A stretch of 63,801 bases of DNA, filler included, from Hausera hauseri (taxonomy: Eukaryota): NCBI GenBank assembly GCA_046269625.1. It is 11 parts of 11 records of this genome, joined end to end, with 100 filler letters (N's around TTAATTAATTAA, not from the genome) between each part and the next. Parts side by side here need not be neighbours in the genome. Positions count along the whole stretch, not along the records: positions 36,880 to 46,752 come from JBJURY010275507.1; 10 more parts are not named here. One strand, 5' to 3'. The position numbers and the translations under genes are program-made. Under the pieces are notes generated by a model. That model did not search any database and was not told the origin of the DNA. It saw nothing but the letters and a program-made list of their open reading frames with translations. This document shows, one piece after another, positions 7,435-63,801 of this stretch. Each line of letters opens with the position of its first letter. Positions within the stretch are counted from its first letter, which is position 1.

Positions 7435-7534
7435 NNNNNNNNNNNNNNNNNNNNNNNNNNNNNNNNNNNNNNNNNNNNTTAATTAATTAANNNNNNNNNN
7501 NNNNNNNNNNNNNNNNNNNNNNNNNNNNNNNNNN
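7435..7534. other. Artificial contig linker N44-TTAATTAATTAA-N44; same at 14492, 19032, 24390, 28572, 32640, 36780, 46753, 51195 and 58409
   Basis: Identical 100-nt spacer with stop codons in all six frames, present 10 times. Confidence 0.99.
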
Positions 7535-9315: not shown

Positions 9316-11121
9316 ATGGCAGCAGATAATCCACCAGCAGCGCAGAAGCTGGACATCTTTACGTTTGATTCTCTAAACCTGCCGGCATATGACTGTGATC
9401 CGGACGGATTAAATGACTTCCTAAGGACTTATAAGTTGCACGCAGAAGGTGCTAGTCTTCCTCCTGAAGTAATGATAAAGCTATACTTAAAGAATTTAGC
9501 CGCTGATGCTTATAGTGAGCTCACAAATGAAGAAAAGAAATCTTGGTCCTCCCTAGTAGGAGCATTGAATCGGAAACTATTGCCAACGGTAACGCCGCAA
9601 CAGAAACTCATGGCCTTTCAGAATAAAGTACAACAAAAGGGTGAATCAGTAACCCAGTTTGCATTTGCATTAAAGAATCTCGCTAATAGTTATGTAAGCA
9701 CTTTGAGAATAGCTAATGTAGCTAGAGCCAAAACAGACGCGGAACGTGAAGCCGCAGAGAAAGCAACTCCGCCAGATTTAGACGTCATGATGACGACACA
9801 GTTGATTATTGGGATTTGGTCCCGAGACTTAGTGAAACAATTGATTTTGGCTATACCTGATAATTTTGAGAGGACGCTACAATTAGCCCAAGATTTAGAA
9901 ATGGCATTAGAAAGATATACCAAACAAAATGATAAATACGAAAGTAACAATGACCGTAGTAATCGCAACAGAAATGATAACCGAGATAATAGACGATTTA
10001 ATGATAATAATAGAAGCCAAGGGTTTGATAATAGGAATCAAAATGCTTATAGAAATCAAAAATATGACAATAGAAATTCTAGTAATAATCGAAACACATA
10101 CAGCTCGTATAATAAGTCAGGTTACAACCCGGACAGGAACCAAAGTGGTTATAACCAAGGTGGTTATCGATCTAATAATAGCCGATATACGGATAGTCGG
10201 AGTAACGATAATAGAGATGATGGAGATAGTAGACAAACTCCACAAAGTCAAAATAAGAATATAACCAGAGCAAAATCGCCCGTAAACGAAGATGGTCGAC
10301 AAAGGATTGGCCGTAATGGAAATTTAATTTGTTATACATGTGGCAAAGAAGGACATATTGCTAAATCATGCCCAAATCCCAGAAGCGTTGCATTTACGGA
10401 GCCGAACAAAACAAGTATGATTAAAAACAACCTAAAAGCCATATACGGCAAAGGAGGTGAGATAAGTATGATAATTGAAATGCAAGATCTACGCAGATCT
10501 GTAAGAAATTTAGGTGAAACCACTAACCCTCACGTAACAAAAGCTAGGAAAGAGTATGAAGAAAAGTTACGACTAATGGAAGTTTATCATGGATTAACAG
10601 AACCAGAAACCGAGGACGAATATGCATTAGCACCAAACAGCATCAATATGGCACGCAAAAAGCCTTTTCCACAGGGAACAGCTCAGGCTGAGAAACCAAC
10701 GACATCTCAAAACGTAGATTTAGACACGGAAGTAGTATCCTTGACACAAGACCCAGAGGAAACTACATATGAGGTCGAAAGTGAATTTATCGGGCCTTTA
10801 GTGCTCAAAATAACTAAGAATAGAGACAGAAGCCCATCACTTAAGAGAAAGTCCACGGATCGCTCTCGATCCCCCATTAAAAAGAATTTGGTGGAAAAAG
10901 AAGATTTCTCTACTATTTTAAAAGATGACTCAATCGCGGATCTTTCTGTTATGTCTAAGGAAATACCAGAAACGCTGGAAACACCAGATGTAGTCAACGT
11001 CAACTACGAAATTAACGAAATTTGCCCACTTCCCACTAGCGAGGAAGAGACACAAGATAGCGATAATTTCGACCCAAAAAATGGAAGATCCGACGATCAT
11101 GGAAGAATGCTGATGAATTGA
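9316..11121 (+). CDS. gag: Retrotransposon Gag (capsid-like domain, N/D/R-rich linker, CCHC knuckle, acidic tail)
   Basis: QQKGESVTQFAFALKNLA (major-homology-like region), CYTCGKEGHIAKSC zinc knuckle; intact 601-aa ORF. Confidence 0.9.
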   Translation: MAADNPPAAQKLDIFTFDSLNLPAYDCDPDGLNDFLRTYKLHAEGASLPPEVMIKLYLKNLAADAYSELTNEEKKSWSSLVGALNRKLLPTVTPQQKLMAFQNKVQQKGESVTQFAFALKNLANSYVSTLRIANVARAKTDAEREAAEKATPPDLDVMMTTQLIIGIWSRDLVKQLILAIPDNFERTLQLAQDLEMALERYTKQNDKYESNNDRSNRNRNDNRDNRRFNDNNRSQGFDNRNQNAYRNQKYDNRNSSNNRNTYSSYNKSGYNPDRNQSGYNQGGYRSNNSRYTDSRSNDNRDDGDSRQTPQSQNKNITRAKSPVNEDGRQRIGRNGNLICYTCGKEGHIAKSCPNPRSVAFTEPNKTSMIKNNLKAIYGKGGEISMIIEMQDLRRSVRNLGETTNPHVTKARKEYEEKLRLMEVYHGLTEPETEDEYALAPNSINMARKKPFPQGTAQAEKPTTSQNVDLDTEVVSLTQDPEETTYEVESEFIGPLVLKITKNRDRSPSLKRKSTDRSRSPIKKNLVEKEDFSTILKDDSIADLSVMSKEIPETLETPDVVNVNYEINEICPLPTSEEETQDSDNFDPKNGRSDDHGRMLMN

Positions 11122-13925
11122 GGAAAATGAGAATTAGATCTCATGATCCAGCTGTACTCAAAAACAATTTAGAAAGGCTTAAGCAAATAAGTGAACAAGT
11201 CGATATATCCGGTAAAGAGCAACAATTTGCAGAAAAATTATATTAAAGTCTAAAATTTTGGAGCGAAGGGAAGTTCGATGAGGCAATTGAAGTAAGACAA
11301 CCGGAAGAGGTGTCGCCCGAGATGTTAGTAAAATGGAAGCACGAAATAGAATCGTGGATTAAAAGTGGAGTCTAATTTTCAGAAGGATGGAGTAAAAATG
11401 AAGATAGCATTGAGGTGAAAGTAGCTAAAGCTCAAACGTTGTTAACCACACTAGAAACTAATCGAAAATTAAAAATAGTAGCCCGCAACTTAGAATATAT
11501 AGTGGATGGAATTCGATATGCTACGACTAACCACCTTAGGGAAAAACCAGTTAACAACCGAAGCGACACGGATTTAGAAATGTTGGATATAGACCCGGTA
11601 GATATACCTCCTTTAATAGAAATGATAAAAATCGCATTCTCTGGACCTAAATTGTATAAGAACTTAGAGAATCGTATCAAATCAGAAAACAAAAAGAGGT
11701 CACAAATTAATAGTTTGAAAAACCGAATTCTATTTATGGACAACGAGGAAACCAAAACTGTAATAAAAGCCTGCATCATAGAGTCCGACGAATACAAGGA
11801 CGAATTTAACTATGTCAGTCAAATAATGAGGTTTATAAAAGGACCGGATGACGAGTTAAAAGATGCGTATAAGATGCTAGATAAGGCCATATTGGCAAAA
11901 CCAGTAATCGCTAACCAACTATCAGAATGGTCTGAATTGATAACAAGACTAAGGAAATTAGTAGAAGACCGCAGAAAAGAGTTTCCAGAAAGCGAACCCA
12001 CGATAAAAAGGCAATTAGAAGAAAGTGCACGAAACCTAGATACCATACTAGCAGAGATAGATATTCGAACACGGTTCGAAGCATTGCGACGACTGAAATT
12101 TATGAAGAAGAAGCAAGAAGAAATTATATTAGAAGAAATATACAGAATGATAGAGGAAACTAACTTTACAGAAAAGCGGAATATGACTTGTGATTTTTAC
12201 TCAAGATTAAGAAATATTCGATGGGAAGGAATCCAATATTTAATAACCAAACCTGTAGACGAAATTTCAGTACAAGATATTGATACTCTAGACATATTTT
12301 CTGATCATAGAGTATTCATAGAAGATGCATTGAGATTCATACATGAACCCCGCAAATGGATGTCCGGGACGGATCAAAAATTCCATACTGAGTTGATAAA
12401 AATTAAAAATGACCAAAGCCTCACTTCCGACGAAGCTAAATTCTTAAAGAAACTACTTAATGCCATAGATCCTGATTCGAAAATCATCAACGAGATGTAC
12501 AAACTAGCTTATTTACTAGTAGAAATGGCAGAAATTAGCGATGAAGAGATAAGGCAACTACTACCTAAACTACGACAAACCGAAGAAACATGTATAAAAA
12601 CTAAACAAAGAGAAGTAAGGTTAACCGAATTAATGAATGAGTTCCAGGAATACCGGAACAAATATGCCTTTACCGAGTCAGAAATCGAGCACAAATACGA
12701 GTTTGTACAAAGATGGCAAAAGGATATAATCATCGAGTTAACAGATTATCATCAGAAAGGACTTATTCCCACCGATGAGTTTGGTGAATTATTGAAACTA
12801 ATTCGACATGCCTGTGGAAACGGCGTAGGTTTCCGTACCACACAGATGAAAGAAATACAACCGAAATTGAAAGAAATTAGAGAAAATGTACGGAGAACGA
12901 GTATAGCACCAATAGATTATGGACCGCCAGAAGTTGATAATGACCCCGAATGGGATGCGTACTTAGATGCAATAAACGTAGAAAATCCAGTAACTCCAAT
13001 ACAACTAAACGAAGTGGAACCATGCCCACAAAGCAGGAGATTCAATGTGGAGATGCTTCTGGACTCAGCGCTAGCTGAAAAGGATTTAATTGAATTAGTT
13101 AACGTAAATATTACTGAAACTAAATTAAGACAACTTATCCCGACTCTAACTAGATTATCTTGCGAAAATACAGTTTACAGTACCTTACCAAAACTTTTAA
13201 TAAAAAGTTATGCGAGAATATTAAGGGCTAAACCTGAAGTAATGATGAAAGTAAAAATATCATCCGAATGGATGGATGAGAAAGAATGTGAACTAACTAC
13301 ATATTTATATGTAAAGGACGTAAGAGAGTGGCTAATAAATAATGGTGGTACGAACGAGTTAAATTACAGATTCTACTTTAGAGGTAGAATACTGGATGAA
13401 TTAGAACAATTAATCGATGTTGGGATTATACCCGACGAGACAAATAGAATAGTGGCAATAATAACTAACGAGCAGACTAAAGAAGAAGCCACCCGTAAAG
13501 CAAAAACAGAACAGTGCGTAGGACAAATCATGGGAGTCCGAGACGCCGCCATGTATTTCGAGTACTTGCAAACCGATGAGGACAAAGAACAATATGACAC
13601 GAACTTAGTGCCATTGACTGTATCACCAATGACCATCCAAAAACAGAAACGGCCCGTACGTAGGCCCAAGAAAATCCGAGAAGATGTTGATTATAATGGA
13701 GAATTAATCAGAGAATTGAGGCAGATGTCAATTCCTACTTTTAGCACACATAATGAAAAACTAAGCGAATTGATGAGGAATCTGATACGAATAGTAAACT
13801 CTTCGAGCCTTCGAAGATATATATTAGACTATAAAGAAAAGGCGATATTTAACGCAGATAGGACAATGAGAAGTGCACGGTTCAAGTTATCAAAAAGCAA
13901 CCTGACAGGCGAAGCAGTAGTTTAG
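11073..13925 (+). CDS. Large unknown charged/helical ORF in the -1 frame of gag, containing a ubiquitin-like domain (~13242-13463); not Pol
   Basis: The frame of ORF 11415-13925 extends back to 11073 with only two TAA (11244, 11373). No D(T/S)G, YxDD, RNase H or integrase motif seen. Ubl-like segment: MKVKISSEWMDEKECELTTYLYVKDVREWLINNGGTNELNYRFYFRGRILDELEQLIDVGIIPDETNRIVAI. Confidence 0.7.
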
Positions 13926-13931
13926 AAAATC

Positions 13932-14491
13932 ATGGTGGAAAATTCAATAGAAGAATTGAGGAAGGTATTGCTCTATTTAGCAATCAAGACAAATCCCAGC
14001 CGAGAAAATGAATTTAATCGGGCTATTAGCTTGGCACGAAAAGCAGCAAGGAAATTACCCTGTGAGGTAAATTGGATTAAAATATTTGATAAAGAAGAAG
14101 ATAAGAGAGCCAGTGGTAGTATACTAGAAGACGCGTTACGGAATCGGACGGCGACAGACAATAATAACCGGAAAAACGAATCCAACTGGTTAATCAGCCT
14201 ACTTACGATAATGATGCTGATGAAACAGATAGGTGCCGTCACTGTCTACGATTGCGATAAATTTAAGCTCGGACAAAAATACTCATTAATGAATCTAGAA
14301 GCGTGCGAAGACGCCAGACCCCATAAATTAGAAACAAAGGAAAAAAGTTATATCCTCTACCAACAACAAGAATTAATATCCTTGGACGGAATGGAGTGCA
14401 TGCTTAAGCGGTCTCGTAGCATTTTTCATTGTGGATTAATGTATGGACATTCTTCAATAATCAAACCAACGACCCCTCTGATTCCAATGAA
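13932..14491 (+). CDS. env: Chuvirus-like (class III fusion) envelope glycoprotein N-terminus, truncated by contig end
   Basis: Signal-peptide-like WLISLLTIMMLMKQIGA, then VYDC....YSL.NLEAC...ILYQQ...EC.LKRSRSIFHCG.YGHSS, matching the YDC...SL...C...Q...C......CG..H pattern of chuvirus glycoproteins; same frame as the upstream ORF, separated by one TAG. Confidence 0.75.
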
Positions 14492-21569: not shown

Positions 21570-22724
21570 ATGGTTCCTGAAGTTGTTATTAACTCATTTA
21601 AGTCGTTTAAACGCATTCTAGTAGTTTGGGATGATTGCTCAACAGACGTATTGCAGGAATTAAATGCTATTCTGAATAGTTTATCTACCGATTTAAGCGT
21701 GAAATACGAAAATCTGAAACGATTAAATCTGTCAAGTTACAAACATTCGTCATTCGACGGTATTTTAAGTGGATGGCCAACAGCAGTTCCCCGCTGAAGG
21801 TCACAACACAGATTTCCTATTTATGGCTTTGGATTTGCTTAAACCAAATGGTGTCATATTTCTACGTCAAGTATTTGATGGTCATGTGGAAAATACTGCG
21901 AAAACAATGAGAATAAGCGGTTTTTTGGATGTTTTTCAGGTAAATTCTTTTAATATTTTTGTTTCATTTTATATTTCGGATGCAAATAATCTGCGTGTTT
22001 ACAGTTCAGTATGTCATTGATGTTGCGTTCTAAAAGTTATTTAGATGAACATATTTACTTTTATTCCAAAATTCTTTAAGACAATGGGATTAATTTGTAG
22101 GTGGGGATATAATGAACATAAATTAAATGTACCATTTGAATTGAATGTTTTAGATTCATATAATTTTAAGTGATATTATTTTCCATTAGAAATATTGACG
22201 TGATATTGCCAAAAATATAAACTGAATATTTTATGTTAATGTCAATTTTAAAAATCAATATGGTTTGGTGTCTGGAATAACTTTTATTTTTTACTATTGA
22301 ATAGGTGGAATGTGGAGAAAAATTTGTCACGATGACAGGCCGCAGCCCATCATACGACATAGGTGCCATTTCGGCGCTCAATGGTATAACGGTATCCGAC
22401 GAACAGATTGGACTGTCAGGTGACGATGAGCTCATTGATACAGATGCGTTGTTGCAGCCGGAGGATTTCGTCAAACCAACAAAGGCCGAATGTGGTGTTG
22501 TGGATAGTCAGACGAAGAAAAAACGAGCGTGTAAGAATTGCACATGTGGCTTAGCCGAACAAGAAAAGAAAGAACAGGTGGTTGTAACGGTAAAATCGTC
22601 TTGCGGAAATTGTTACCTCGGAGACGCGTTCCGTTGTGCGTCGTGCCCGTATATGGGTATGCCTCCATTCAAACCGGGTGAGGCGGTTATTCTGAACGAC
22701 GATCAACTTGCAATGGATTTGTAG
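21570..22724 (+). CDS. CIAPIN1: Anamorsin/Dre2 Fe-S assembly protein; exons 21570-21939 and 22305-22724
   Basis: N-terminal methyltransferase-like domain ([15 protein letters not shown]), [52 protein letters not shown]; GT-AG phase-0 intron 21940-22304; one frameshift at a C-run near 21790. Confidence 0.93.
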
Positions 22725-36335: not shown

Positions 36336-36956
36336 GTATTATTTATAGTTTTATTTTTTGGCATTCCAATAATTTTCATGTGGAGTTACTTATTAAATAT
36401 TCCAAATTTGAATATAGATTGTTGTAATAGATTGATAGCTCAACTATTTTAATGTGCTCACTAAATTTAATTTTCGGGTTTAATTTGATCGTTTAAGGTT
36501 TTATTTTTTGTTTCTTTTTTTGCACATGAATCCGTAATTAATGGTTATTTATTTATTTTTTTGACAACCTATCTATTTTTCCGATTTTTGAGTATTTTAA
36601 TTTATCTGTGATGTTGAATTTTGAGAAATTTAAATTTTGAGATTTTGCTTTTGATATATTTTGTTATTAGTAAAAAAATTTTTATTTTGTTGATTTGGTT
36701 AATCTGAATATAAATTTTAATATTTTGTAAGGTAGAACCTTACAATGTATAAGGGGTTTTTATATATGAGGAATCCATTNNNNNNNNNNNNNNNNNNNNN
36801 NNNNNNNNNNNNNNNNNNNNNNNTTAATTAATTAANNNNNNNNNNNNNNNNNNNNNNNNNNNNNNNNNNNNNNNNNNNNTCAGCAGGAGAATGAACGAGT
36901 CCATCGGAATTAGTTACATTGCAATGTTGCTTGAAACAAATCCGATCTGCTGACTG

Positions 36957-37437
36957 TCACGTTGGAATGATGTTGGAATCTTTGGAATCTTTGACAAAAT
37001 CTTCCACAAACCGTATTTGATGTGGATTATCATCCAACGACGCCAATTTCTGATAAGTGAGAAAAATCTGGCCGAATATCGTGTCCATATCACCAAGAAC
37101 CTGCTTCATGTCGTAGATAAGGTTCTCGTGCCCTCCAATTCTCCTCAGTACGCCGGAGTATCTCTTCGGGCGAACAGTATCGTACATCATGTAAAGGTCG
37201 ATCAAGATTATAAAGTCCAATAAGGAAATTAATCCGTCGTTGTCGTTGTTGCCGCTTTCGTTTCCACTCATCTTCGATACGTTTTATGAAGAGAGATTGA
37301 ACTATCAATTCAATACACTCTCGTCTGCTCATTATCCTGGTTTCTGTCAGCTCACATAGATACTGAACGTCAAACACGTGTCCAGTCATTATTTCATCTG
37401 TCAATTTCCGAATTTCACTCTCAATGTACTCTTCCAT
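36957..37437 (-). pseudogene. Unknown Polinton ORF (frameshifted)
   Basis: Overlapping ORFs 37090-37437 and 36957-37271 probably form one gene. Confidence 0.4.
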
Positions 37438-37631
37438 TTAAGTTGTAATATGTAATACAGTTGATATGTTTATATCTGAGTAAAATAAATAAGTTACTGT
37501 ATATCAATTTATTATATAATTGTATTTAATGTTAACATTTACTTTTATTTGTTTTAATTTAGAAATGTAATCAATATCTAATGTATAGCGTCACTCGCAT
37601 ACATGAGAAGTCATAACAGTACCATAAACAG

Positions 37632-38033
37632 ATGGCGAAATATTACAGTGTTGGAATGGACACATATTTATGTCCGAAGTGTAATATTTCAGCCCAATGT
37701 CCGTATCCCGATTTTTATGAGATGAGCAAGCATCATCTCGGACCGTTTACAAGTACAGTGTACAACGTTGATGGTTGTCATAGTGCAATGGAACAATACT
37801 ACGGCGCCACAAGGGTGCACGGTAAACGGGCCTATGTATGTCCCGATTGTTCTATAGTCGATGAAATGAACTGTGAACAATTTTATAATGAGCACAAGGA
37901 CCACTTGAACCAGTTTCAGAGGTCCAAAAAAGAAATATTAATGGAGGCAGCAAAAAGCATTATTCATTCAGCAAGTAAGAAACGTCAAGCATCAACAAGT
38001 CTTGATGAATACCTGCAAAGCAGCAAAACATAG
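37632..38033 (+). CDS. Cys/His-rich (Zn-finger-like) ORF upstream of pPolB
   Basis: YLCPKC and YVCPDC...HKDH motifs. Confidence 0.5.
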   Translation: MAKYYSVGMDTYLCPKCNISAQCPYPDFYEMSKHHLGPFTSTVYNVDGCHSAMEQYYGATRVHGKRAYVCPDCSIVDEMNCEQFYNEHKDHLNQFQRSKKEILMEAAKSIIHSASKKRQASTSLDEYLQSSKT

Positions 38034-38111
38034 CATCAGCAGCAGCAGCAGGAATCGCCCATTACTGTCAAGTACGATCTAAACAGATCGTACGTAGACA
38101 TAAAAGTAAAC

Positions 38112-41100
38112 ATGTTGGCGAAATTAGCAACTCAACTGAGGTACGTACCCGCTCATGTGCTCAACCGGTTAAAAATCGAAGTGGAGAAATTCAAACACCA
38201 CAATTGCAAAGTGAAATATTATGCACTTGCAGAATTTGAGAATCTGCATGGTGACAGGAAACAATGGTACCTGTCACATCGTGCAGATCCATGTTCCAAA
38301 TATTTCATTGCCGACATAGGCGAAAAAGTGGACAAAAAAATTGCAAACTACACCGAAAAGGGCAGTGGTTGGCGAATAATAAAAATTGTCACTCTCGGTT
38401 TTACTATAACAAAGTCGAGTGATATAATTTACCTGCCTGAATGTTCATTCATACGACATCTGAAGCTCTAAAGCACTCTTATGCGGTAGTGAATGTAAAA
38501 AACACGGACGATGATTACTGTTTTATTTACAGTATTCTGGTGGTATTAAAATATGACGAAGTGGACAGACATAGTGCATATCGTACAAGTCTGTATCGGC
38601 AGTATTTTTCCGAATTGCAATTCGACGAAAACTGGATGCAGAAGAAACTAAAAACCATTCTAACATTTGAACGGCGTAATTCGACGTTTTCAATCAACGT
38701 GTTACTGTACATTACAATAGTTGAAATACCTGCAGACAAGGAAATTTACAAGAATCCACATGTGGATATAATCTATCATAGTCGGAACCCGTATGGACGC
38801 ACAGTAAATTTGTTATTGTTGAAGCAGGCAGAAAATTTTCATTACATGGCCGAAACAAATTTGGACCGACTGTTGAACATGGATCACCATCAGTTTGTCC
38901 AAAACAAATACGTTGTAAAGGGTGTCTTACATGTCTCTATGGCTTCAGATCAGAAACCACGTGGGAAAAACATGTGACGCTGGGCAGACAGAATGCATCA
39001 GAAACAACAATGTACGTCATGCCAATCAAAAAGGAGCTGCGATTTAGTGACTGGTATAAAACGGGCAGTCCAGCATATGTGATATTTGCTGATATTGAGG
39101 CAATTCTATCACGGCACGAAGTACACGATCGAAAACATGTTCCAGTTGCCGTCGGAATATTGGTTGACCCAATAAAAGCTGCAAGTCAACCGCAGTATTA
39201 CATGTTTCACGGCTGGAACTGTGTGTATGTGATTTCCTGCATCATTTGGAAACAATATCTGAATCGTAAATCGCACCGTGGTATCGCAATAACAGTGCAA
39301 AACCCCTGATTTGGACAGATGAAGATGAACGCCTGACATTTGCAGTCACAGAGGAATGTTACCTGTGCCACAAAATATTACCGTTTGATGCACAAGAACG
39401 AATAGTACCGGATTACGACCATTTTACCGGTTGATACTTGGAGCAGCATGAAACACATGCAATTTAGCGAGGTGTGTGCGGCCATTTCTACCGATGATCT
39501 TTCATAATTTTCGAGGTTATGATTGTCACCATATACTGAAATGGGCCATCAACGGATTTCCGCACTGGGAACTGTCCATAATCCGAACAACAATGGAGAA
39601 GTGTCCGTTTCTGTCAGCATGCATAAACCGGTTCCAGGTACGCTTCCTTGATTCGTTGCAATTTCTCAATGAATCACTGGGGAAGCTGGTAAATGCCTTG
39701 CCGGATATGCCGATAACCTCAACACAGTTCCCCACATATAATGCACGTTGCAAAGGCATATTTCCATATGACTTTGCAACATCATATGAGTGACTCAAGA
39801 CAGCATAGAAATTACAGCCGCGATGGACAGGTATCGCAAAGGATGAATACCGGAAAGCACAGAAATGTTGGATAGAACTCTGCTGTAGAAATATGCTGGA
39901 TTACATGCTACAGTGTCTTAAACTGGACGTATACTTATTAGCCGATGTGTTCCAAGCGTTTCGAGCAAAAGTGTTGGTTGAAGATATGCTGAAGCCACTC
40001 AACTTTTATTCCATACCGGGAGTGAGTTAGGCGTCAGGTCTAATGTCACTGGATCGAGACATTGAGCTTCTGCAAGACCCGGAAATGTACCGGCTGTTTG
40101 ATGTTGGTATTCTCGGTGGCATGACATTTGTCAACAAACATCAGGTCCGTGCAACCGATACTATATCACTACCGTATATTGATATTAATAACCTGTACGG
40201 CTGGGCGCTTTCGCAACCCTTGCCGTAGGGTTTATTCGAATGGGTTGTCGACAGACAATATGTGGACGATATAATGGTCAACCTACCATGAGCAGACATG
40301 GCAGACTCAGTCGGATACCTGATGGAGGTCGATTTGGTGTACCTGATGAGCTGCATGACGTTTTGGACGATTTCCCGGTCGCACCACTTATCCAATGTCC
40401 GCCAAGCTCAAAAGTGAAGAAACTTCTCATGACGCATGAACCGAAGCTAAATTACGTGGTCCAAGGCGTACATAAATGGAAATTCGGAGAAACGAGCCAC
40501 AGCTTGTACAAAGTTCGAAAAGGACTACAAGGAGCTGGAAAACAATTTCCCGTACGGAAAAACAGTGGAGAATCTGAAAAAGCGGCTCAATGTACACCTA
40601 TGCAATAGCGAAAAGCGGTTAGTCACGTACAAGAGTAAGCCGCAGTTTCGGCAGTCAATGCACATTGCCGATGGTTTGGTTGAGATGCTGTTAAACCGGA
40701 AAGAAGTCGTTATTGACCGACCAAGTTACATCGGACAAGTGGTATTGGACGTGAGCAAGTTGCGGATGTATGAGCTACAGTATCGCGATTTGGTACATTA
40801 CCATCAAATGTTTGATTTCTGTGATATTAGTATTGTTGCAGGTGACACAGACAGCTTTTTCTTGCGGCTGAAAAAAGTCAGTCGCAAAAAAGTCAATGCA
40901 GTCAGATGGATTACTGGACACGTCCAACTATCCACCGGATCATCCGTTGTATGGCAGTGAGATCGCCAACAAAATCGGCTGCTTTAAAGATAAAAGTGAA
41001 GGTCGTGTCCAATATCGGAATGGATATTCCTACGCTCAAAGTGCTACAGTCTTCTGACGGACTGTGGACTGAAAATGCGGAAAAAAGGAGTCCAGCTGAG

Positions 41101-41293
41101 ACAGACGGAAATCAACCACGGTGATCATCACCGTATCTATGAAGAAGGACAAACAAAGGCTGTTGTGTTACAAATGATCATCCGATCGATTGAGCACCAG
41201 CTGTATACGGTGATCAATACAAAAGTCGCTTTATCATGCAATGATAAACGTAAGTGGGTGGGGCGAAATAAGAGTTGGAAGTACGGACAATGA
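38112..41293 (+). pseudogene. polB: Protein-primed family B DNA polymerase (pPolB)
   Basis: GSGW, VVNVKNTDD.YCF, IFADIE (Exo I), FHNFRGYD (Exo II), FLDSLQF, KGIFPYD, LKLDVYLLADVF, YIDINNLYGWALSQPLP, YGKTVEN, GDTDSFF, LDTSNYP, KGV; many frameshifts and stops. Confidence 0.95.
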
Positions 41294-41491
41294 CGTTTGG
41301 AATAAAACACGCATGAATTCGATGTAGACGATACAGACAGATCAAATTACTGCGACAATTCATTGTGATTTGTTTGTTTTGTATAAATAATGTATATTAT
41401 TCGTTGTTTTTGCCTTTTGTTTTATTATAATTTAACGTATCTATTTAACTTAATGTGACAATAAACAATATAAAAAAGTCAATAAAATTTA

Positions 41492-41991
41492 TTAATCATC
41501 ATAAGCTAAAATCAAAAACAAAGTAAATCCAATCAGGGTAAACTTTCCCAGCTTCCATATTGGTGATTTAATGCCGTGCAGATCCTTGTATCCTTTCAAC
41601 TTCAATGTTAGATGACCTTTAGCTCCTTCTGGTAGCAAAACGGCCGCTGCTGCTACTGCTGTTTCTCCCCCATGTGAACTGACAATTTTCGCCATATTTC
41701 CTTTCAGAAAAATCGACGATGTGCCTCAGATATCGTTAGTCAACACCAAGTCACTGTCAACTTTTCTAATTGTATCTTCCATTGTATCCAAATCATCGTC
41801 TCTCATTTTTTTCACCAATAGGCCATATTTCACCAGTTTATTTTGACCGTTTGCATCAATGGCAATTGAATAGCGTTGCGCAGATAATATAAGTTGTATC
41901 CATTATACAACCAGAAATTTCTATGCGAATATTCGCTGCACCTTGGCTTTTTTGACAGACGGTCACTTGCGGAATTATTTTTCAAATTCAT
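41492..41991 (-). pseudogene. Unknown Polinton ORF, possibly an ssDNA-binding protein
   Basis: Broken ORF ending ...GHLTLKLKGYK..GIKSPIWKLGKF; SSB/OB-fold resemblance is only an impression. Confidence 0.25.
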
Positions 41992-42150
41992 TGTTTAAAG
42001 AAGACAAGCGTGAAGTGAAATTGCATCTCTATTTATATCAAAGGTTTGTTATCATTGTAAACAATAGACATTTATTTTTTGACTATTGTCTCATATCACA
42101 ATGATACAAATTACCTCCACGTCATTGAAGCCTATGTTCCGTTATTAAAC

Positions 42151-42629
42151 TCAATCGTAATAAACGTGTACAATTTCCATTACAGCACATTTACATTCTG
42201 GGCATTGGTGGGTTGTTACTTGGGTAGTGGAACACATTTGACAAACAACGAGATGGCCGCTCATTAAGAATACCGTATCCACTTGTCTTTGTTTACATAG
42301 TACACACATAAACTGACAGTCTCGTACTTTGTCCATTGTTTTCTCTTTCAAGTTCGTTAATTCACCGCGTACCTTTTCAAAAGTACTAAAGTAATTTTAT
42401 CATAAAATCGGTGAATGTACATTTGATTTAACACAATAATTAGATTTTCTATAGAGCTGCAACCTGTTGCTGTCATCAATGCTACTGACGTTAAATCCTC
42501 TTTAAATCCAAAATCACCTGCTGCTCTCGCAACCAGATCACTATCAAGTACTTTCCACCATCGTTCCAAGTCTGAAATTGATAATCCATCAAAATTTTCC
42601 AATTGCGTCAATTGATTAACTATTTCCAT
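42151..42629 (-). pseudogene. IAP-type UBA-like + C3HC4 RING protein lacking BIR domains
   Basis: RING CVLC...VDTVFL.SGHLVVC..C......CPEC...V; upstream LVARAAGDFGFKEDL....CSSIENLI resembles the cIAP/XIAP UBA; the two parts are separated by a stop and frameshift. Confidence 0.7.
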
Positions 42630-42732
42630 GATATTATTTCCTACCTATATTCATAGTTTTTGAATTATTCAACTGACTAACACGGCGGACCTTATATACG
42701 GAAAGAAAAAAGAAACAGAGAAATACATTTAT

Positions 42733-43220
42733 TTATTTCGATAAAATATAGTCGATACAAAGGCGTAAACATTTTATGTAAGCACATTGCCGTCCGCGAT
42801 CACTATACGGACATCGGATACTGTCAGGTACCATCGCCAGCGAATTATTCGATGTTGTTAAATACATCGTCATTCGCAACTCCGAAATTAGTGAATGGAG
42901 TTGTGTAAACTTTTGCAGGCCAATTTGATCTTTAATGTAAAATATGATATTTTCAATGTCAAAACGATCACAAATCTCTTCCATAATACATGGCACACAA
43001 CGTTGAATTGCCTTCATACCAATGAAGTCCACGACGATGTCGAAAGAAATCCATTTGTAATTTTCGCTTTTTCCGTCAGGTCTTTCCATACAATACCGGG
43101 CTTGAATATGTACACAAGTGGTTAGAAAATGTTACCGAAGTCCATAATGCATAATTCCTTTACTATGTACCGGACATTATCATCTAGGAAAGCTTCAATA
43201 TCTATAAACCCTGACGCCAT
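42733..43220 (-). pseudogene. DEDD-like nuclease commonly found in Polintons
   Basis: MASGFIDIEAF...YIVKELCI...YIFKP..W..L....K.TN...IFYIK...C..CA.IKC; internal TAA and frameshift. Confidence 0.65.
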
Positions 43221-43303
43221 TACTTAGCTGGTACAAAATCATTTTTTATTTTTAACACAAGCAAAACAACTAACTATTATTATTATTATTATCATAACAA
43301 TCA

Positions 43304-43790
43304 TTAAACATAGGTGGTTTTGTCCATATCACCAATGCCTAATTCTTTGCGTTCATTTCGTGTCGATTCATTGACGCAAAATAATTTCCATTGTTCAGGT
43401 GACATTACACTGAATTTTGCCTCTTCACAGCGAAGAAAAACAATTTGTGTGACTGCACGTCCTTTTGAAAAAGCACACGTTGCCGGATAGGTTTTCCACC
43501 AACACTTTAATTTTAGCACAAAAGTCTGAATCAATGACACTGCCGCCCAACAACCGTCAGTCCAAGCTTTGCCACTCCGCTTTTCGATAACAGTTGACCG
43601 TAGTAACCCGGTGGAATCGCCAATCGAATCCCAGTCGTTATACATTTGATTGTGCTGTCCGAAACTGTCGTATTGACATTGGAAAACATCGTTGCCTGCA
43701 CTATTTGCTGTAACACGTCTCGGTACAAAGGTATTTTCGTCTGTTAAGATAATCTTTACATCATTTATTATCCTTATTTTTATGCCATTC
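43304..43790 (-). pseudogene. dut: Trimeric dUTPase
   Basis: PRRVTANSAG.D (motif I), TTGIRLAIPPGYYGQLLSKSG.A..GLTV (II), D.DF..KIKV (III), GRAVTQIVF (IV), R.E.GIG (V); frameshifted. Confidence 0.88.
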
Positions 43791-44047
43791 CTAAAATAAC
43801 ACGTATATTTATACTTGTTAATTGGGTTAATGAAAAAAGAACAGTAAAACAATATATATTGGTAATTAAAATGCGCTTCAGCCCCACGCTAAATCGGGCT
43901 TTTGAAACCGGCTTTTTCCTGGTATCCTTGCAATTCAATATTCAACCGACACTTTAATCGACCACCATCATCATCAAGTACATGAGATATTTCGCGAGCG
44001 ATAAAATCAAATAATTTCCTTTTCTGCACCGGCAAAACAACACATTG

Positions 44048-45064
44048 CTATTGCACGGTCGTTTCGTTCAACTTTAAATCCACATTTAATTGATGTATGG
44101 CATCAGAAAGTTTATCCAAATTTTCACCCGAAAGCCGTTTAACACGATAGCGGTACTTGGGTACACATAGAGATACGGGATCATTCAATGAGATCAGTAC
44201 GGGCGTTTGCAGAAAATACATTTCATACTTGAGAAGAATTCGTTTCGGTAAAAATGTCTGTGTTTGACACGATAATTTTGATTTTTGTATACGTATTCCA
44301 ATCATTGCATTTTGCCTTTTTAACGTCGGTTTTGATGATTTCTGAGCAAGTTCCTTTTTCGTTTCCAGACAATCGCCCTGCAAACAATTGCCATTAGAAG
44401 GTTTTTCTAATTGTTGGACAAGTTCTGGTTTCGCTTCCAGCAGTTTGATATTAGAATTATCCTTTTTGTAGCCAAACAACCACGACCAATCTGAACTTTC
44501 ATCATTGGCATCAATGAGTAGAATCGTTTTGTCGACGTCTTCCATGGCAGTAATGTCTGAATAAGCATGGGAATGGTATTTATAGTTTGTTGTTGTGCAG
44601 AGTACATTATTTGGATTCACTAAAACATGTACGTAGTTTTTTATTTGATTAATAATCAATTCATAGTCCACTATCCGAATACTGAGTACAGCAATTTTTT
44701 CGCTGCTAACCACATTGACACAAAGTGGGCGAAACGATGTCAGTGTCAATGCAGGAAACAGTTCGGGTTCATATGTACATTCAGTGGCCATTGCTAATTT
44801 GAACAGATTGATTGTTTGGTAGTCTAACTGAGTCGTTACCGTTATTGATTGAATTTGGTCAATAACAATTCCGAATGGTAATAGTTTACCAGCTGTTATT
44901 GGTTTGCGACAACCCATAATACGACACTTTCTCGATTAAAATATAATTCACGTGAAATCCGGTGGACATTTGAGGACATACTGCCTCGGCTTCCATTGAT
45001 TAAAAGGTAATGTGTTAATGTCACACTCGGTAACATGTCCGCGATAGTTGATATTAGCTAACAT
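44048..45064 (-). pseudogene. TATA-binding-protein-like gene (two TBP repeats, ~44630-45064) in frame with an unknown C-terminal extension
   Basis: MLANINYRG...IIF*SRKCRIMGC (repeat 1; two stops near 44940-44950) and IQSITVTTQL...INLFKLA....YEPELFPALTL...PLCVNVVSSEKIAVL (repeat 2, cf. TBP YEPELFPGL). Confidence 0.8.
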
Positions 45065-45160
45065 TATGGAAACAGTGTTTATACTATAGCTATTTATATG
45101 CGCGTAACACGATTATAAACAGATCATGTGAGGAAAGGTTGTATTATTATGATTATTTAG

Positions 45161-45770
45161 ATGAAACTGCAGAATGATGCCATTTTCCAGATTGTAGGCC
45201 CCAGTGGAAGTGGCAAAACACACTTTGTGTGTAAACTATTGCCGAACTACCAGAACATGTTCCATTCACCGCGGTACAGTCACATATACTGGCATCAAGG
45301 TGCTGGTGATGATGGTTAGTCCGGTTTGACACAACGGGAATTTTGCAAACTAAAATCCATAACGGTAATTGATGAGTTTGATAAAAACTGGTCAAAGAGA
45401 TTACGCAATGGTGACGTTATTTTCATCGATGATTTATTTCAAGAGACAACGAAACAATCGGACTTCAACAACCTGTTCACAAAGATGGCACGACACCGTG
45501 GTGTAAGGGTTATTTTCATTACGCAAAACATGTTCCATCAGGGCGGATAGCATGGAACAAAAAATCTAAAAGTACACTATTTGATGTTGCTCAAAAATCC
45601 CCGTGATCAGACTAATATTGATTGTTTCACGACAAGCATTTCCTCACAACTGAGCCCGTTTGATATATGCATATCATGATGCTACGACCGAGCCACACGA
45701 ATACTTGTTCATCGACTTTACAAAACAGTGTCCAGATGACATGCGTGTACAAACAGACACTTTCAATTAG
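45161..45770 (+). pseudogene. FtsK/A32-like packaging ATPase
   Basis: IVGPSGSGKT (Walker A), VIFIDDL (Walker B), LFTKMARHRG, FITQNMF, KNPRD, YLFIDF. Confidence 0.92.
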
Positions 45771-45994
45771 AAAGGTGTGTGTCTATAAACAAATTCAAAA
45801 ATCGACAACATGATAGTGATAAAATGAAGAATTTCCGAACAACAATTGATGAACGTAAACCTACTAAGCGGGTGTCCGGCAAGAATCGTGTATCAAAACG
45901 AACCGCTGCAGTCAAGCGATTAATCAATTCTGTGCTTCAAACAACAGCAGCTGCAACTAGACGCAAACTACCGTCACAGTGGCAACGGTTGTAA

Positions 45995-46350
45995 ACAACT
46001 ACGTCTCACCAGCATCAAAACGTCCACAAAAAAGCGATTCAAACGAGGTCAGCTGTACTTTATTGCTTTGCTCAAGGCACCTACGAGACATAAGCGAAAC
46101 ACGCTTCGATCATTTCTACAATTTGTGGTAGACGATTTAATGGAAATTTTGTACAATATCGTTGTGGGTCACGTTGATATTGGTAGCGGGAACCGTAATT
46201 TACTAAAATATCGAAAACGACTCATTGGCCTTGCCATCGCTCGTAGTAAACGACTGAAACAAGAGGTCATGTATCACCAAGACGAGGATTCCTTGGTGCA
46301 ATTATACGGTTGTCACGTCATTACTGGATGGACTCGTTGGTTATGCAGCA
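45995..46350 (+). pseudogene. Basic Polinton core (pVII-like) protein
   Basis: LMEILYNIVVGHVDI....LLKYRKRL..LA....KRLKQE..YHQ, matching the E...N...G.V..L..YK..L..LA pattern seen next to Maverick ATPases. Confidence 0.6.
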
Positions 46351-46519
46351 TAGTATAAACAATGATGGTAAATATATGATGATTCAGCGATATGGGTGCA
46401 TCGTTTTCATCATTTTGCACCACTTTACCGAATCTTTCATTTACGTTTCATTCTAATTTCTGTAATGTTAACAAAACGACATCATCGTCGACAACGATGG
46501 GCGGCGTGTGGTTCGATCC

Positions 46520-46752
46520 GTGTCATCCCGTCGGGTATACTGGCGTAAACTGTTAAAGACTGTCAAACAGACTCGGCAACAGACCGAAAGTTGGCTCGGG
46601 AAACAGTTGGCATAAAGCCTAAACAAACCGATAAGAAGGCGGTTTCCAACTCGTGCATACCGTGTTGCCGGTGTCAATAACGTATGGCAAATGGATCTGA
46701 TGGAAATGATTCCGTACGCCAGCATCAACGATGGATATCGGTACGTGCTGAC
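46520..46752 (+). CDS. Polinton integrase N-terminus (truncated by contig end)
   Basis: ESWLGKQLAYSLNKPIRRRFPTRAYRVAGVNNVWQMDLMEMIPYASINDGYRYVL. Confidence 0.88.
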
Positions 46753-58509: not shown

Positions 58510-60340
58510 ATGCTGTTTTTTAAACACAAGGTCAATTTCCTAGGACATGTTAGTAGCTCCTCCGGACATTCACCTCAGCCGGACCGCATCACTCAGCTCA
58601 AAAACATACAACTGCCACGTACGTTAACAGAGATGCGTTCTTTCCTCGGAACCTTGCACTTTATTCATAAGTACGTTCCGCACTGTTCCACTTTAATCGC
58701 TCCATTTGCATTACTAAACTCTGGCAAGAAGAAACAGCCTACTCAATGGACCGCAAATTTAGTCAATGCTTTAGATGGTCTCAAAGACAATTTGAAAACT
58801 GTGGATATCCTGCTTATCCATACTCCCATGCAGAACTTTTCTTAACCACCGACGCATCCACAAAAGCTGCAGATGCTGTCCTACATCAAGTTAAAAAAGG
58901 ATCCCATAAACCATTGGAATTCTTTTCTTGAAAATTCACAGCACAAGAGCAGAGATATTTTACCTTTGACCGAGAGTTGCTTGCAATGGTTCTTGCCGTA
59001 AAACGCTTCAAACATTTCCTAACTGCACGAACTTTTACCATACAAACTGACCACAAGCCCTTGCTTTAAATTCTCACCATGAAATAGCCTTCTCCACGTA
59101 AGGGGAGGCAAATGTCGTATTTGTCAACATTTAATTTTGTAAGTAAACACCTAAACGGGGTCGGCAATTTAGTAGCTGCCTTTTTGTCCCGATCGGTCAG
59201 CTCGATTGATTTTACACCAATCTTTCCTCAATCGAAACTTCAGCAAAACCAGCCACCTCTTGACATGCTTAAATCTTTTAAATTTTGCAAAACCATCGAC
59301 GGTGCGGCCTTTGACACCTCCAAACCTAATAATCCTAAAGTCATCCTTTCTGAATCGCTTCAAAAAGAAGCATTCAACAGCATCCATTCGTTGCATCATC
59401 CCGGGGCCAAGGCCATTTTTCGACTCTTACAACGCCAAGTAGTATGGCCGTCGATGCGCTCTGACGTGCAGGCATGGGTTAGGCAGTGTGTGGCATGCCA
59501 AAAATACAAAGTTACTAAGCACTTAAAGCTACCACTATATCATTTTCCCTGCACGTCTCGTTTTGAATCTGTTCACATTGACCTTGTATGCCCACTACCC
59601 TTAGACAACGGCCATCAGTTCATACTCACAATAATGGACCGTTCCTCGCGATGGCCAGAGGCTGTCCCGCTTCGGAGCACTAACACAGAAACAATTGCAG
59701 ACGTTTTCATCCGCACTTGGATCAGCAGGTTTGAATCACCTCGCTACATCATTTAGGACCAAAGCCCACAGTTCGAATCCAACTTGTTTAAAGCTATTGT
59801 CAATCGATTGAAAATTAACCAAATTTACAGGTCATCATATTATCCTCAATCGAATGGCCTTCTCGAACGCTTTCACCAAACGATGAAAACGTTTCTCAAA
59901 ATCCTTGCTGAATTAAATCGCAGTTGGACTACACTCCTTCCGTACGTTCTGCTTGGCTGGTGGAACACACCATCTACTTCGACAGGCTGCTCTCATGCAG
60001 AAGCATTATTTGGTACTTCTATCAGACCATTATTCGAGCTGGCTGAGCTGGACAATATTCTTACAGACGAAACCAAACAAGCGGCCCAAAGACACTTCGT
60101 TGAGATCAGCAAAGACTCATTTTGCAGACTGTTACACGGAAATAAACCCAACATACCTGATGATTTATATACTGCTAACTTCGTATGGCTAAAAAATCAG
60201 ACGCCGTGTGATTTTCGACCCCAGTATGTTGGCCTCTACAAAGTAATTCGTTTACACTCTCACAATATCATCATTTTCAAGGACGACAAAGAAGTAACAG
60301 TCCACATCAACAATGCTAAGCCGGATTTTTTCATTGACGA
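58510..60340 (+). mobile_element. pol: Ty3/Gypsy pol remnant (RT C-terminus, RNase H, integrase)
   Basis: VNFLGH, MRSFLG, LTTDAS, TFDRELLA, TDHKPL, H..HHPG...C..CQ, VHIDLV.PLP, RWPEA, PQSNGLLERFH; several stops and frameshifts. Confidence 0.95.
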
Positions 60341-61100
60341 TACGTCTCCCATCGAAACCACTTCTCCACCAACATCTTTACACGACGCGCAGCAATCAAC
60401 AATTCACCTTCCATCTTTGCTCAATTTTCTAACTCACTTTCCCCTAAGTTTTCTCCCCAGACTTCTACTTCAATTTTTTTAGTTCAGCCTATTTTTTCCC
60501 ACCCGATTTTGCACCTTCAAGCCTTTCACACCCCCTTCATCCCCTGGTGACAACTTGCTTTCTCCTCTTACAAGACCTCCTCCGCCAAACACCATTTCGA
60601 TTTCACCAATATTTCCATCTTTTTGCTCTCTTCCGTTTTGTCCCTCTTCGCAGTCTTTTCTCTCCCTCTCGCTTTCTTTCTCCTTCCACACCTTCCTCAT
60701 TTTCGGCGATCGCTCCCTCCCTCTCTCCTTATACATCGTCTTTTACTCCTTTCGTCACCGTTTCGCAAATTTCTTCTCTTTTTACTCCTATCCATATCTC
60801 TCTTTCTCTCTCTACTACTACTTTTGTTTCATCCTCTATTTCTACTCTATCACCTAATACAATTTCAATTTCTACGCAACTTTTCGTCTCTCCTCCTTTA
60901 TCCGCCACTACACCTCTTTTTAGTCCTTTGTCTTCCAACACTCCCTTGAACACCTTCAACCGTCTGCCTCCAAAAACCTCTCTTCCTCCTTCACCTTCTA
61001 TTTCTCTTTATTCTGAACCATCTTCGCACGACACAACACTCACAAAACAATCCCACAATTTTTCCCCAAATTCAAACTCTGCAAGCAAACACACAGAATA
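60340..61100 (+). repeat. C/T-rich low-complexity tail of the Gypsy element
   Basis: Pyrimidine-rich tract; followed by a purine run GCAGGGAAAAA (~61138), a possible PPT. Confidence 0.6.
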
Positions 61101-62559: not shown

Positions 62560-62934
62560 TTCTATTTTTATTCGTAAAAAATAAGATCACACGTTTGAAT
62601 TCGAATTCTTGTTGAGCCATATTTAGCGTAAAAATTCCTTCTTGATTTAATCTTACAATTATCAATCGAAATTTGCTTATATTTGGAAATTTATTGTTTC
62701 AGTTTTTATAAGCGTAAACGGTGTAATCATATTTCAATTGTTGCTACGAAGTTGCATACTTGTCATATTTATTGTGTATCCAATAGTTGGTTGATTACAA
62801 GGTAGAAGAAACATTGCAAGTCGCAATAAATTCGTTCGGACATGGTGTACACAGATGCCATCTTGTTTCCGTGCAGAAACGAACAAACCAACATCGGAGT
62901 TCAACTTGTCCATTTATAAGACCAAATACAGAGC

Positions 62935-63801
62935 ACGAAATGTACTGCAAAAACAATTACTATGTAAGACCAGAATTTCCCAAGGAGGACTATATTGAAT
63001 TCAAGGAGTTCGAGAAGAAGATCAAGGTCCCAATAGTTACCTATTGCGACTTTGAAGTTATTCTTCGACCAATACACAGATGCACTCCCAGTCCTCAACA
63101 CAGCAGCACAATGGCATACCAATATCATGAACTCTCATCATATTGCATGTATGCCAAAGTACTGGACAGTGAACCATTTCTATTCAGGAGTCTAGGCGCA
63201 GCATTACATTTCATGAAATAACTGGAATACATGACTCATAGGATTGGAGATATGCTCTAGCAGTATAAGGATACCATAAACATGTCGAAAATGCAAGAAG
63301 AAGAATGGCACAAGGCAACAACATGTTACTTATGCTCCAAATCATTCACCAAATAGAATGATAAAGTCAAGGATCATTGCCATTTTACAGGCACATATCG
63401 CGGCGCAACATGCAACAACTGCAATCTGCGTTGCAAAACATGTACATGTGCCTGTATTGTTCCACAATCTCAGTGGGTATGATTCCCACTTTACTGTTCG
63501 GGAACTGGGCAACATTGATGGGAACATTGATGTCATTCCAAACAGTGAGGAAAAATATATCACCTTCACTAAGCATGTGGGCCGAATTAGACTTCGATTC
63601 GTAGACAGCTTCCAATTCACGAGCTCGTCACTGGATAGTTTAGTGAACAACCTCCCTGCAGAAAAACTCAGGTAGACGAAGCGGTTCTTCCCCACTGCAT
63701 TTTACATCGTCAAGAGGAAAGGCGTGTTTCCTTATAATTAAATAACATCATGGGAAACACTGGATGAGACCTCATTGCCGGACAAGAAAGAGTTTTACAG
63801 T
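62935..63801 (+). pseudogene. polB: Second Polinton pPolB fragment (exonuclease region)
   Basis: VPIVTYCDFE, CYLCSKSF, VKDHCHFTGTYRGATCNNCNL, VLFHNLSGYDSH, IPNSEEKYITF, RFVDSFQF..SSLDSLVNNL, RKGVFPY; contains stops. Confidence 0.93.

Follow-up and report, generated by a model that had tools for sequence, protein, structure and literature searches.

A structurally reduced TATA-binding protein of Polintons and a promoter-like box before their packaging and capsid genes

Polintons carry a TATA-binding protein (TBP) of about 150 amino acids that is under purifying selection, and a promoter-like box is fixed some 35 nt before their packaging ATPase, capsid and core-protein genes and is rare before the TBP gene itself. 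The member of this family found in the window, by which we mean the whole stretch of 63,801 nt of Hausera hauseri DNA analysed here (assembly GCA_046269625.1), is a real TBP homologue in the form of a pseudogene. Ten spacers (44 N, 12 nt and 44 N each, at 7435, 14492, 19032, 24390, 28572, 32640, 36780, 46753, 51195 and 58409) divide the window into short scaffolds, so that neighbours across a spacer are not linked. The TBP finding sits on the scaffold at 36880-46752, where the gene and its two premature stops are placed as follows.

44579-45064, minus strand: mini-TBP pseudogene, codons 1-162 (Pfam TBP above cut-off; 76% identity to the intact homologues P0002 and P0003; tree support 100/100 with both)
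44948-44950, minus strand: premature stop, codon 39 (sequence)
44936-44938, minus strand: premature stop, codon 43 (sequence)

The minus-strand frame 45064-44048 begins with an ATG and contains both YEPELFP and SRKCRIMG. With X placed at the stops, it scores 24.2 bits against Pfam TBP (PF00352), above the cut-off of 22.9, and all 27 of the solved-structure sequences that match it at E<=1 are TBPs or TBP fusions (best E 2.3e-5). A previous sequence-only reading had recognised a TBP-like gene here, which the motifs and the Pfam and PDB matches bear out; it had also taken the frame to be open, writing the stops at codons 39 and 43 as 'x', and in this it was mistaken. The two stops fall inside and beside its quoted 'IIFxSxK' motif. 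At four of the 21 columns that show no variation among 29 intact homologues the window copy has a substitution, and both TFIIB-contact glutamates are retained in the alignment. This copy is dead, and its use is limited to that of a marker.

The C-terminal part of the frame had been described as an extension of the protein. It is not: beyond the TBP gene the frame reads through into its downstream neighbour, a gene with a TATA box to itself. This conclusion is drawn because the closest homologue ends at codon 162, the remainder matches a separate gene family (C1), and that gene has a TATA box and an ATG of its own.

43868-44545, minus strand: downstream gene, family C1, broken; its 5' part is the earlier 'extension' (C1 profile and tblastn)
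44577-44584, minus strand: TATAAATA box of the downstream gene, overlapping the end point of the closest homologue (sequence, alignment)

The nearest homologue, P0002 (76% identical), stops in the alignment at the position of window codon 162, and 124 of the 125 listed TBP homologues are no longer than 175 aa, with a median of 150 aa. Codons 278-335 of the window frame match the C1 profile (E 5.9e-14), tblastn places C1 at 44227-43868 with 2 stops, and a separate TATAAATA box stands 39 nt ahead of the ATG at 44545. That the extension is a protein domain was ruled out by comparison with the 31 longer tails found among homologues, none of which is like it. It is hardly credible, finally, that the 338-codon frame encodes a live fusion protein with recoded stops. 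The frame does stay open for 295 codons past the second stop, and one longer family member, P0270, has an unrelated tail. However, stops or frameshifts also occur in the polymerase, ATPase, integrase, C1 and C3 genes of the same element, four invariant TBP columns are substituted, none of the 31 tails resembles the extension, and the downstream gene is equipped with its own TATA box and ATG.

C1 adjoins TBP in 22 of the 60 loci surveyed below. Language-model comparison of C1 (L025:1479-1835) points to nucleocytovirus proteins that are unnamed (score 0.93), and DUF2738 is assigned to 10% of one of their clusters; alignment of C1 against solved structures gave no convincing match (best E 0.37). 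Short AT-rich GT...AG stretches are seen between clusters C5 and C1 in five loci (L005, L011, L016, L017 and L025) and also upstream of C11. This sequence pattern suggests that C5 and C1 are two exons of one spliced gene, and the stretches between them would fit nuclear transcription.

The other genes of the scaffold are listed here.

38208-41290, plus strand: protein-primed DNA polymerase B (pPolB), broken by 15 stops and several frameshifts (Pfam DNA_pol_B_2; tblastn E 8e-142)
45149-45785, plus strand: A32-like packaging ATPase, broken by 4 stops and 1 frameshift (64% identity to intact Pox_A32-matching ATPases)
46467-46752, plus strand: rve integrase (INT), 5' part, truncated where the scaffold ends (58% identical to intact rve integrases)
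46023-46334, plus strand: C6 gene, a putative core protein (weak Adeno_PX match in relatives, E 0.011 and 0.05)
42739-43223, minus strand: family C3 gene, broken; it adjoins TBP in 15 of 60 loci (comparison with relatives)
43534-43743, minus strand: dUTPase-like fragment (Pfam E 0.0017, below cut-off)
42154-42396, minus strand: RING-finger ORF (Pfam zf-C3HC4_3, E 1e-7)
37093-37437, minus strand: family C4 gene, with ATAAACA 36 nt upstream (comparison with relatives)

The core gene set of Polintons (Mavericks) includes pPolB, an rve integrase, an A32 ATPase, a protease and a double-jelly-roll capsid. The first three are all present on the window scaffold, which bears out the earlier naming of the element as a Polinton, and the last two occur in relatives. 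The double-jelly-roll capsid and the adenovirus-like protease are absent from the window scaffold, which ends inside the integrase; in relatives both lie downstream of the integrase. Neither terminal inverted repeats nor a target-site duplication were seen in 36880-46752, a scaffold ending within that gene. By comparison with intact relatives, the window pPolB, ATPase, INT, C1 and C3 carry stops or frameshifts, and the TBP copy together with most of the Polinton element is dead. Of eight listed public runs, four were aligned to the scaffold; all four, from four organisms, cover 30 of 30 bins with many divergent contigs, which fits a multi-copy family. The records per aligned run (59,729, 2,912, 637 and 525) represent a depth that is not a copy number. 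From the neighbouring scaffolds and the style of the promoters, the host would probably be an animal.

TBP and the A32-like ATPase stand head-to-head in the window, with 84 nt between the TBP start and that of the ATPase at 45149. This arrangement, remarked upon earlier, is correct for the window but is not conserved, the two genes being on the same strand in 13 of the 15 loci that hold both.

Two small points on neighbouring genes may be added. In family C3 (alignment A8) the N-terminus bears an acidic D-x-E motif, and Cys/His residues are conserved, features which we take to be reminiscent of a DEDD-type nuclease fold; no convincing Pfam family was found for it, and the best solved-structure match has E 0.59. 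A small ORF at 46392-46553 (plus strand), ahead of the integrase, starts with Met-Gly and is also found upstream of INT in L015, L021, L031, L035 and L038, in relatives with a Cys motif at its end; it may be lipidated.

The intact relatives define the family. A homologue search with the window protein gave 30 matches among 43 candidates. Among 1516 candidates, the profile of 29 of these homologues matched 514 clusters at E<=1e-5, a figure that may include some cellular TBPs; 120 of these matches were listed, and the unlisted remainder may hold cellular TBPs. Family representatives at E<=1e-30 number 60. A search for longer proteins yielded three matches of 7993 scored, P0270 and two proteins that we label TRF2-like from their motif.

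Genomic context was surveyed in 60 metagenome loci with TBP homologues, many of them near-relatives and most of them short contigs. Neighbours include the ATPase (15 loci), rve integrase (8), C10 (8), C12 (7), a C5-type protease (6) and pPolB (3). At least one Polinton core gene is found in 22 of the 60 loci, and most of the remaining ones are contigs of 1-3 kb. As to the synteny of TBP, ATPase and integrase, which the sequence-only reading had singled out for a survey, the ATPase (15/60) and the rve integrase (8/60) recur as neighbours of TBP, and the order of the genes is variable. C10, a capsid candidate for which no sequence match was obtained in the PDB, was identified by its fold: its model (pLDDT 73) matches a double-jelly-roll major capsid protein (Foldseek E 2e-13).

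Four further contigs were found by their ATPase alone. L122 carries pPolB, INT, capsid and protease together with a mini-TBP (40.6 bits against Pfam TBP). L123, a divergent Polinton, has the core set, an ATPase about 40% identical and a full-length two-repeat TBP at 11568-12122 on the minus strand (124.7 bits), while L124 and L125 are cut short. In L057:1-537 and L060:747-1235 an intermediate TBP with a longer N-lobe lies directly upstream of a divergent ATPase with ATAAACA at -36. Among Polinton TBPs three grades can be told apart: a full-length one in L123, an intermediate one in L057 and L060, and a mini one in L122 and the clade of the window copy. The dN/dS ratio of the TBP family has a median of 0.33 and a maximum of 1.04 (126 non-independent pairs from 49 genes, 0.05<dS<1.5); for the ATPase it is 0.11. 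Pattern-limited scans of viral contigs with the mini alignment, the intermediate alignment, the plant-type canonical TBP P0181, the ATPase and the capsid detected no relative, and a likewise pattern-limited scan of genome contigs with an archaeal-type TBP gave no match.

The Polinton contigs L122-L125 lie within bacterial MAG records, where they are probably mis-binned. L022:5616-7684 holds a tandem pair of C12 genes (putative minor capsid), and an ORF for a ubiquitin-conjugating enzyme is present at 225-719 of the same locus.

The origin of the family was approached by a tree of 78 rows and 159 columns, which has long branches and does not include animal canonical TBP. The window row groups with P0002 and P0003 (100/100) in a mini clade of 31 rows (100/98), itself inside a clade of 50 rows with the intermediate forms (100/99). 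Neither the two eukaryotic TBP rows nor the two TRF2-like ones fall within the 50-row clade. Forcing the family together with these four rows costs 29 log units and is not rejected (p-AU 0.089). A deep host origin of the family is thus compatible with the AU test (p = 0.09) and is not rejected, and the grouping with giant-virus TBPs may be due to long-branch attraction.

A recent host retrocopy is unlikely on this tree. That the gene is a recent retrocopy of host TBP, or a passenger, decaying in the element is in our judgement very improbable, even though the window copy is a pseudogene and a clade with eukaryotic TBP/TRF2 is not rejected at p 0.089 in a tree lacking animal canonical TBP. Identity to solved TBPs is 20-27%, against 76% to family members, and the window row is nested in the mini clade of a Polinton-borne family, apart from the eukaryotic TBP/TRF2 rows. 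Moreover, the family has intact frames, dN/dS below 1 and a Polinton context in 22 loci, and the remaining element has decayed to an equal degree. The clustering with host TBP that would mark a recent retrocopy, named by the sequence-only reading as a refuting outcome, was not seen in this tree, in which eukaryotic TBP is represented by non-animal rows.

That the family adopts a TBP fold was examined on the intact relative P0002. Its model has a pLDDT of 92.6 and matches TBP in Foldseek at E 4e-8. Superposed on human TBP 164-337, it gives Z 12.9 with an rmsd of 2.5 A over 146 aligned residues, and the next unrelated fold has Z 6.2; identity to solved TBPs is 20-27%. In the model, the N-lobe strands are present, no helix of at least 4 residues occurs before residue 85 and the C-lobe is complete.

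Contact surfaces were compared in an alignment of 160 of 179 family proteins with P0181, the 19 partial or motif-lacking ones being dropped. The middle columns of N-lobe helix H2 are gapped in 86-98% of the 160 members. The two C-lobe stirrup glutamates are 97% and 99% conserved. Three of the intercalating phenylalanines are kept at 99-100%, and the first aligns to a 99% conserved proline. Several strand positions are invariant among the 160 members yet differ in type from canonical TBP; we take these positions to be DNA-facing in the canonical protein. Their being at once invariant and non-canonical suggests a changed site preference.

The family is thus predicted from the model to be a TBP saddle from which both N-lobe helices have been deleted, and the surface for TFIIA, TAF1, Mot1 and Brf is predicted to be missing together with them. 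Excerpts of PMC7221094 describe the glutamates as the TFIIB contact and a basic N-lobe cluster, mostly on H2, as that for TFIIA, TAF1, Brf1/2 and Mot1. Compared with cellular TBP, TRF and TBPL (PF00352; human core 1cdw, yeast 1ytb), the family shares the two-lobed saddle (Z 12.3-12.9), a complete C-lobe, the YEPELFP stirrup with both TFIIB-contact glutamates and three intercalating phenylalanines. It differs in having about 150 rather than about 180 core residues, in the lack of N-lobe helices H1 and H2 from the model, in the replacement of the first phenylalanine by proline and in its non-canonical DNA-facing residues. The family is a TBP by profile and fold, yet it is not a canonical TBP.

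A second line of evidence concerns the DNA upstream of Polinton genes. The boxes of the window are given below.

45091-45098, minus strand: TATAAATA box of canonical type, 34 nt before the TBP start (sequence)
45114-45121, plus strand: TATAAACA box, a candidate late promoter; its ATAAAC precedes the ATPase start by 34 nt (motif enrichment in relatives)
45785-45790, plus strand: ATAAAC box 39 nt upstream of the ATG at 45824, which opens a basic ORF ahead of C6 (sequence)
46355-46360, plus strand: ATAAAC box 37 nt upstream of the small ORF (ATG 46392) preceding the integrase (sequence)

The box is retained in the window before four genes on the plus or minus strand, at -34 (ATPase), -39, -37 and -36. 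The window TBP gene has, in addition to its canonical box, an ATAAACA-type one 18 nt upstream of its start.

The motif was noticed by eye and then tested in 80-nt upstream regions from which near-duplicates had been removed. ATAAAC occurs upstream of the ATPase in 11/11 cases, the capsid in 6/7, C6 in 6/9, C12 in 4/7, C3 in 7/9, LRR in 4/4, C22 in 3/3 and the protease in 3/4. For the ATAAAC-rich gene classes the shuffles have means of 0.1-0.9 (p<=0.005, the floor of 200 shuffles), and there are 0 antisense occurrences. It is rare before INT (1/6), C13 (1/5), C1 (3/18), C4 (0/8), C5 (0/7), C11 (0/6) and C14 (0/7). Before the TBP gene, ATAAAC is found in 3/39 and ATAAACA in 0/39. This gene has instead a canonical TATA upstream in 17/39 (shuffle 3.6) and an initiator-like TCAYW in 27/39 (shuffle 7.6), and the same two elements precede C5 (4/7 and 5/7) and C14 (6/7 and 6/7).

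Position is constrained as well. In relatives a (T)ATAAAC(A) box lies about 35 nt before the ATPase and capsid starts, and 10 of the 11 ATPase sites are at -31 to -36. A conserved start lies downstream of 131 of 167 motif sites, at a distance of 30-39 nt in 38 of the 131. In L122, 11 TATAAAC are found on the structural-gene strand and 0 on the other, and ATAAAC precedes C6, C12, capsid and protease, not ATPase or INT. The TATAAAC strand counts in L123 and L125 are 2 and 2. L123, the contig with the full-length TBP, has no ATAAACA before ATPase or capsid and a canonical TATAAAAG before the C6 core-protein gene; L125, which is cut short before the TBP position, has the same promoter pattern.

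Two other explanations of the motif were ruled out. It is not a polyadenylation signal, as it occurs at 1 of 22 convergent gene ends and its spacing is fixed to starts, not stops. Nor is it a coding constraint before the capsid: 7/7 loci use ATA-AAC for Ile-Asn, while in the comparison these Ile and Asn codons have shares of only 400/984 and 238/960.

From these comparisons, we lean towards the view that an early viral TBP would read a late promoter of the TATAAACA type and recruit host TFIIB and RNA polymerase II (Pol II) for the capsid and packaging genes. Host TBP/TFIID would transcribe the mini-TBP gene early. The mini-TBP would prefer the viral TATAAACA-type box through its non-canonical DNA-facing residues, and the kept C-lobe glutamates would dock host TFIIB. 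Loss of the basic N-lobe helix H2 would free it from TAF1, TFIIA, Brf1/2 and the evictor Mot1/BTAF1, and it would then drive the packaging and capsid genes with Pol II. Host TFIIB is the proposed partner because no viral TFIIB was found: among 56 representative neighbours and the 23 ORFs of L122/L123 there is no TFIIB family match at E<=0.05, a search that very divergent ones, or ones beyond the contig ends, could escape. The proposal made from the sequence at the outset, a basal factor of viral origin that redirects host polymerase, would fit the kept TFIIB-contact glutamates and the gene-class-specific motif. Several observations speak against our view: the motif is mostly missing before INT (1/6) and C13 (1/5) and is missing before the L122 ATPase, the window TBP gene has its ATAAACA box at -18, and the 5' leader would have to be very short if a TATA-like box stood just 35 nt ahead of the ATG.

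In its general form, which we hold to be plausible if slightly doubtful, the proposal is that a widespread Polinton group possesses a one-protein early-to-late switch: a minimal TBP, cut down stepwise from a full-length ancestor, would read TATAAACA together with the TFIIB and Pol II of the host, and TFIID, TFIIA and Mot1 would not recognise it. Polintons show each grade that such a stepwise reduction calls for, from full through intermediate to mini.

An alternative model, unlikely but deserving of weight, assumes that host TBP or a Forkhead protein reads TATAAACA and that the mini-TBP is an inhibitor that occupies TATA or soaks up TFIIB, thereby damping host or early viral transcription. The box differs by one base from canonical TATAAA(A/T)A; host TBP may be able to read ATAAACA, which also fits the Forkhead consensus. 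Keeping the TFIIB glutamates while losing the co-activator surface would suit a dominant-negative protein as well as an activator, and scans of viral contigs by ATPase and capsid found no TBP-less Polinton to serve as a control for the motif. Against this model, the DNA-facing positions are invariant and non-canonical, and ATAAACA is missing before ATPase and capsid where the TBP is full-length (L123, with L125 alike; two contigs only).

Another model, which we consider improbable, is that the TBP fold has been kept for a purpose other than transcription, for instance to bend viral DNA or to mark it for replication, integration or packaging. Mini-TBP often adjoins ATPase, C1 and C3, C1 resembles unnamed nucleocytovirus proteins, and half of one lobe's outer surface is lost. 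The variable gene order speaks against such a role, as does the 97-99% conservation of the TFIIB glutamates, for which excerpts of PMC7221094 give no known use outside pre-initiation complexes.

The proposed late factor, a TBP that would act with host TFIIB, can be compared with two kinds of viral TBP. According to excerpts of Ravarani et al. 2020 (PMC7221094), nucleocytovirus and poxvirus TBPs have lost both signatures, conservation of their C-lobe glutamate reaches only about 40%, and a TFIIB of their own is encoded in most of these genomes. As in the large dsDNA viruses covered by those excerpts, the Polinton protein has a conserved L5.1 Phe and has lost the eukaryotic N-lobe basic signature; the P0002 model has 22 matches in BFVD at E<=0.001. 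In contrast, the Polinton glutamates are 97-99% conserved, no TFIIB was found and the helices are deleted outright. The TBPs of large viruses are full-length whereas the Polinton mini-TBP is structurally reduced, and Polinton contigs carrying almost the whole core set measure just about 13 kb. The word 'Polinton' does not occur in the main text of PMC7221094.

The ORF24 protein of KSHV, representing the beta- and gammaherpesviruses, is described in excerpts of PMC12529657 as a TBP mimic that reads TATTWAA before late structural genes, early genes having host-type promoters. It is large, binds Pol II directly, requires five further viral factors and, by prediction, cannot be combined with TFIIB (same excerpts). 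The Polinton model, in which binding is inferred, likewise consists of a viral TBP and a dedicated non-canonical box before structural genes. Unlike ORF24 as portrayed there, the Polinton protein is a bare domain of ~150 aa that keeps the TFIIB contact. By analogy, the mini-TBP would work like the herpesvirus TATT-binding late factor without being a member of that system.

A trace of the family may exist in print. The Fig. 5 legend of Starrett et al. 2021 (PMC8502044; preprint 10.1101/697771), a paper whose abstract names the Polinton core set, has a 'TBP' label in MELD viruses with adintovirus-like PolB. It is a single legend entry, to which the portions available add neither text nor structure, nor a survey of the family or an analysis of promoters; 'TBP' and 'TATA' were not found in one supplement of that paper (about 4 million characters, possibly truncated). 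Term look-ups found no Polinton TBP in PMC11131425, PMC11161782, PMC12220804, 10.64898/2026.10.13.758929 or 10.64898/2026.06.19.733378, and the passages of PMC10675990 returned mention TBP for mirusvirus-like elements only. Beyond the Starrett legend, the family was not described in the published literature that was searched, a search lying outside figures, bioRxiv supplements and most subscription journals.

We know of no account of how Polinton capsid genes are controlled, and a literature search on this subject found no paper. Their control bears on the question of a true viral cycle. A dedicated TBP and a matching promoter box form a directly testable pairing. In this family, moreover, nature has dissected TBP, which poses the question of whether the saddle and the C-lobe stirrup suffice by themselves to initiate Pol II transcription when the regulatory surface of the N-lobe is missing. 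It stands in contrast to the TBPs of large viruses, which are paired with their own TFIIB.

Other scaffolds of the window hold the following features.

62931-63786, plus strand: second pPolB fragment, more divergent and broken, on another scaffold (comparison with relatives)
59112-60479, plus strand: LTR-type integrase fragments, Integrase_H2C2 and rve (Pfam)
22332-22721, plus strand: CIAPIN1/anamorsin match, a piece of a host gene (E 1e-23)
9316-14489, plus strand: long ORFs with a CCHC zinc knuckle, then an ORF matching a Monjiviricetes fusion glycoprotein (E 7e-9)

Judging from these ORFs, the stretch at 9316-14489 is probably an env-bearing LTR element.
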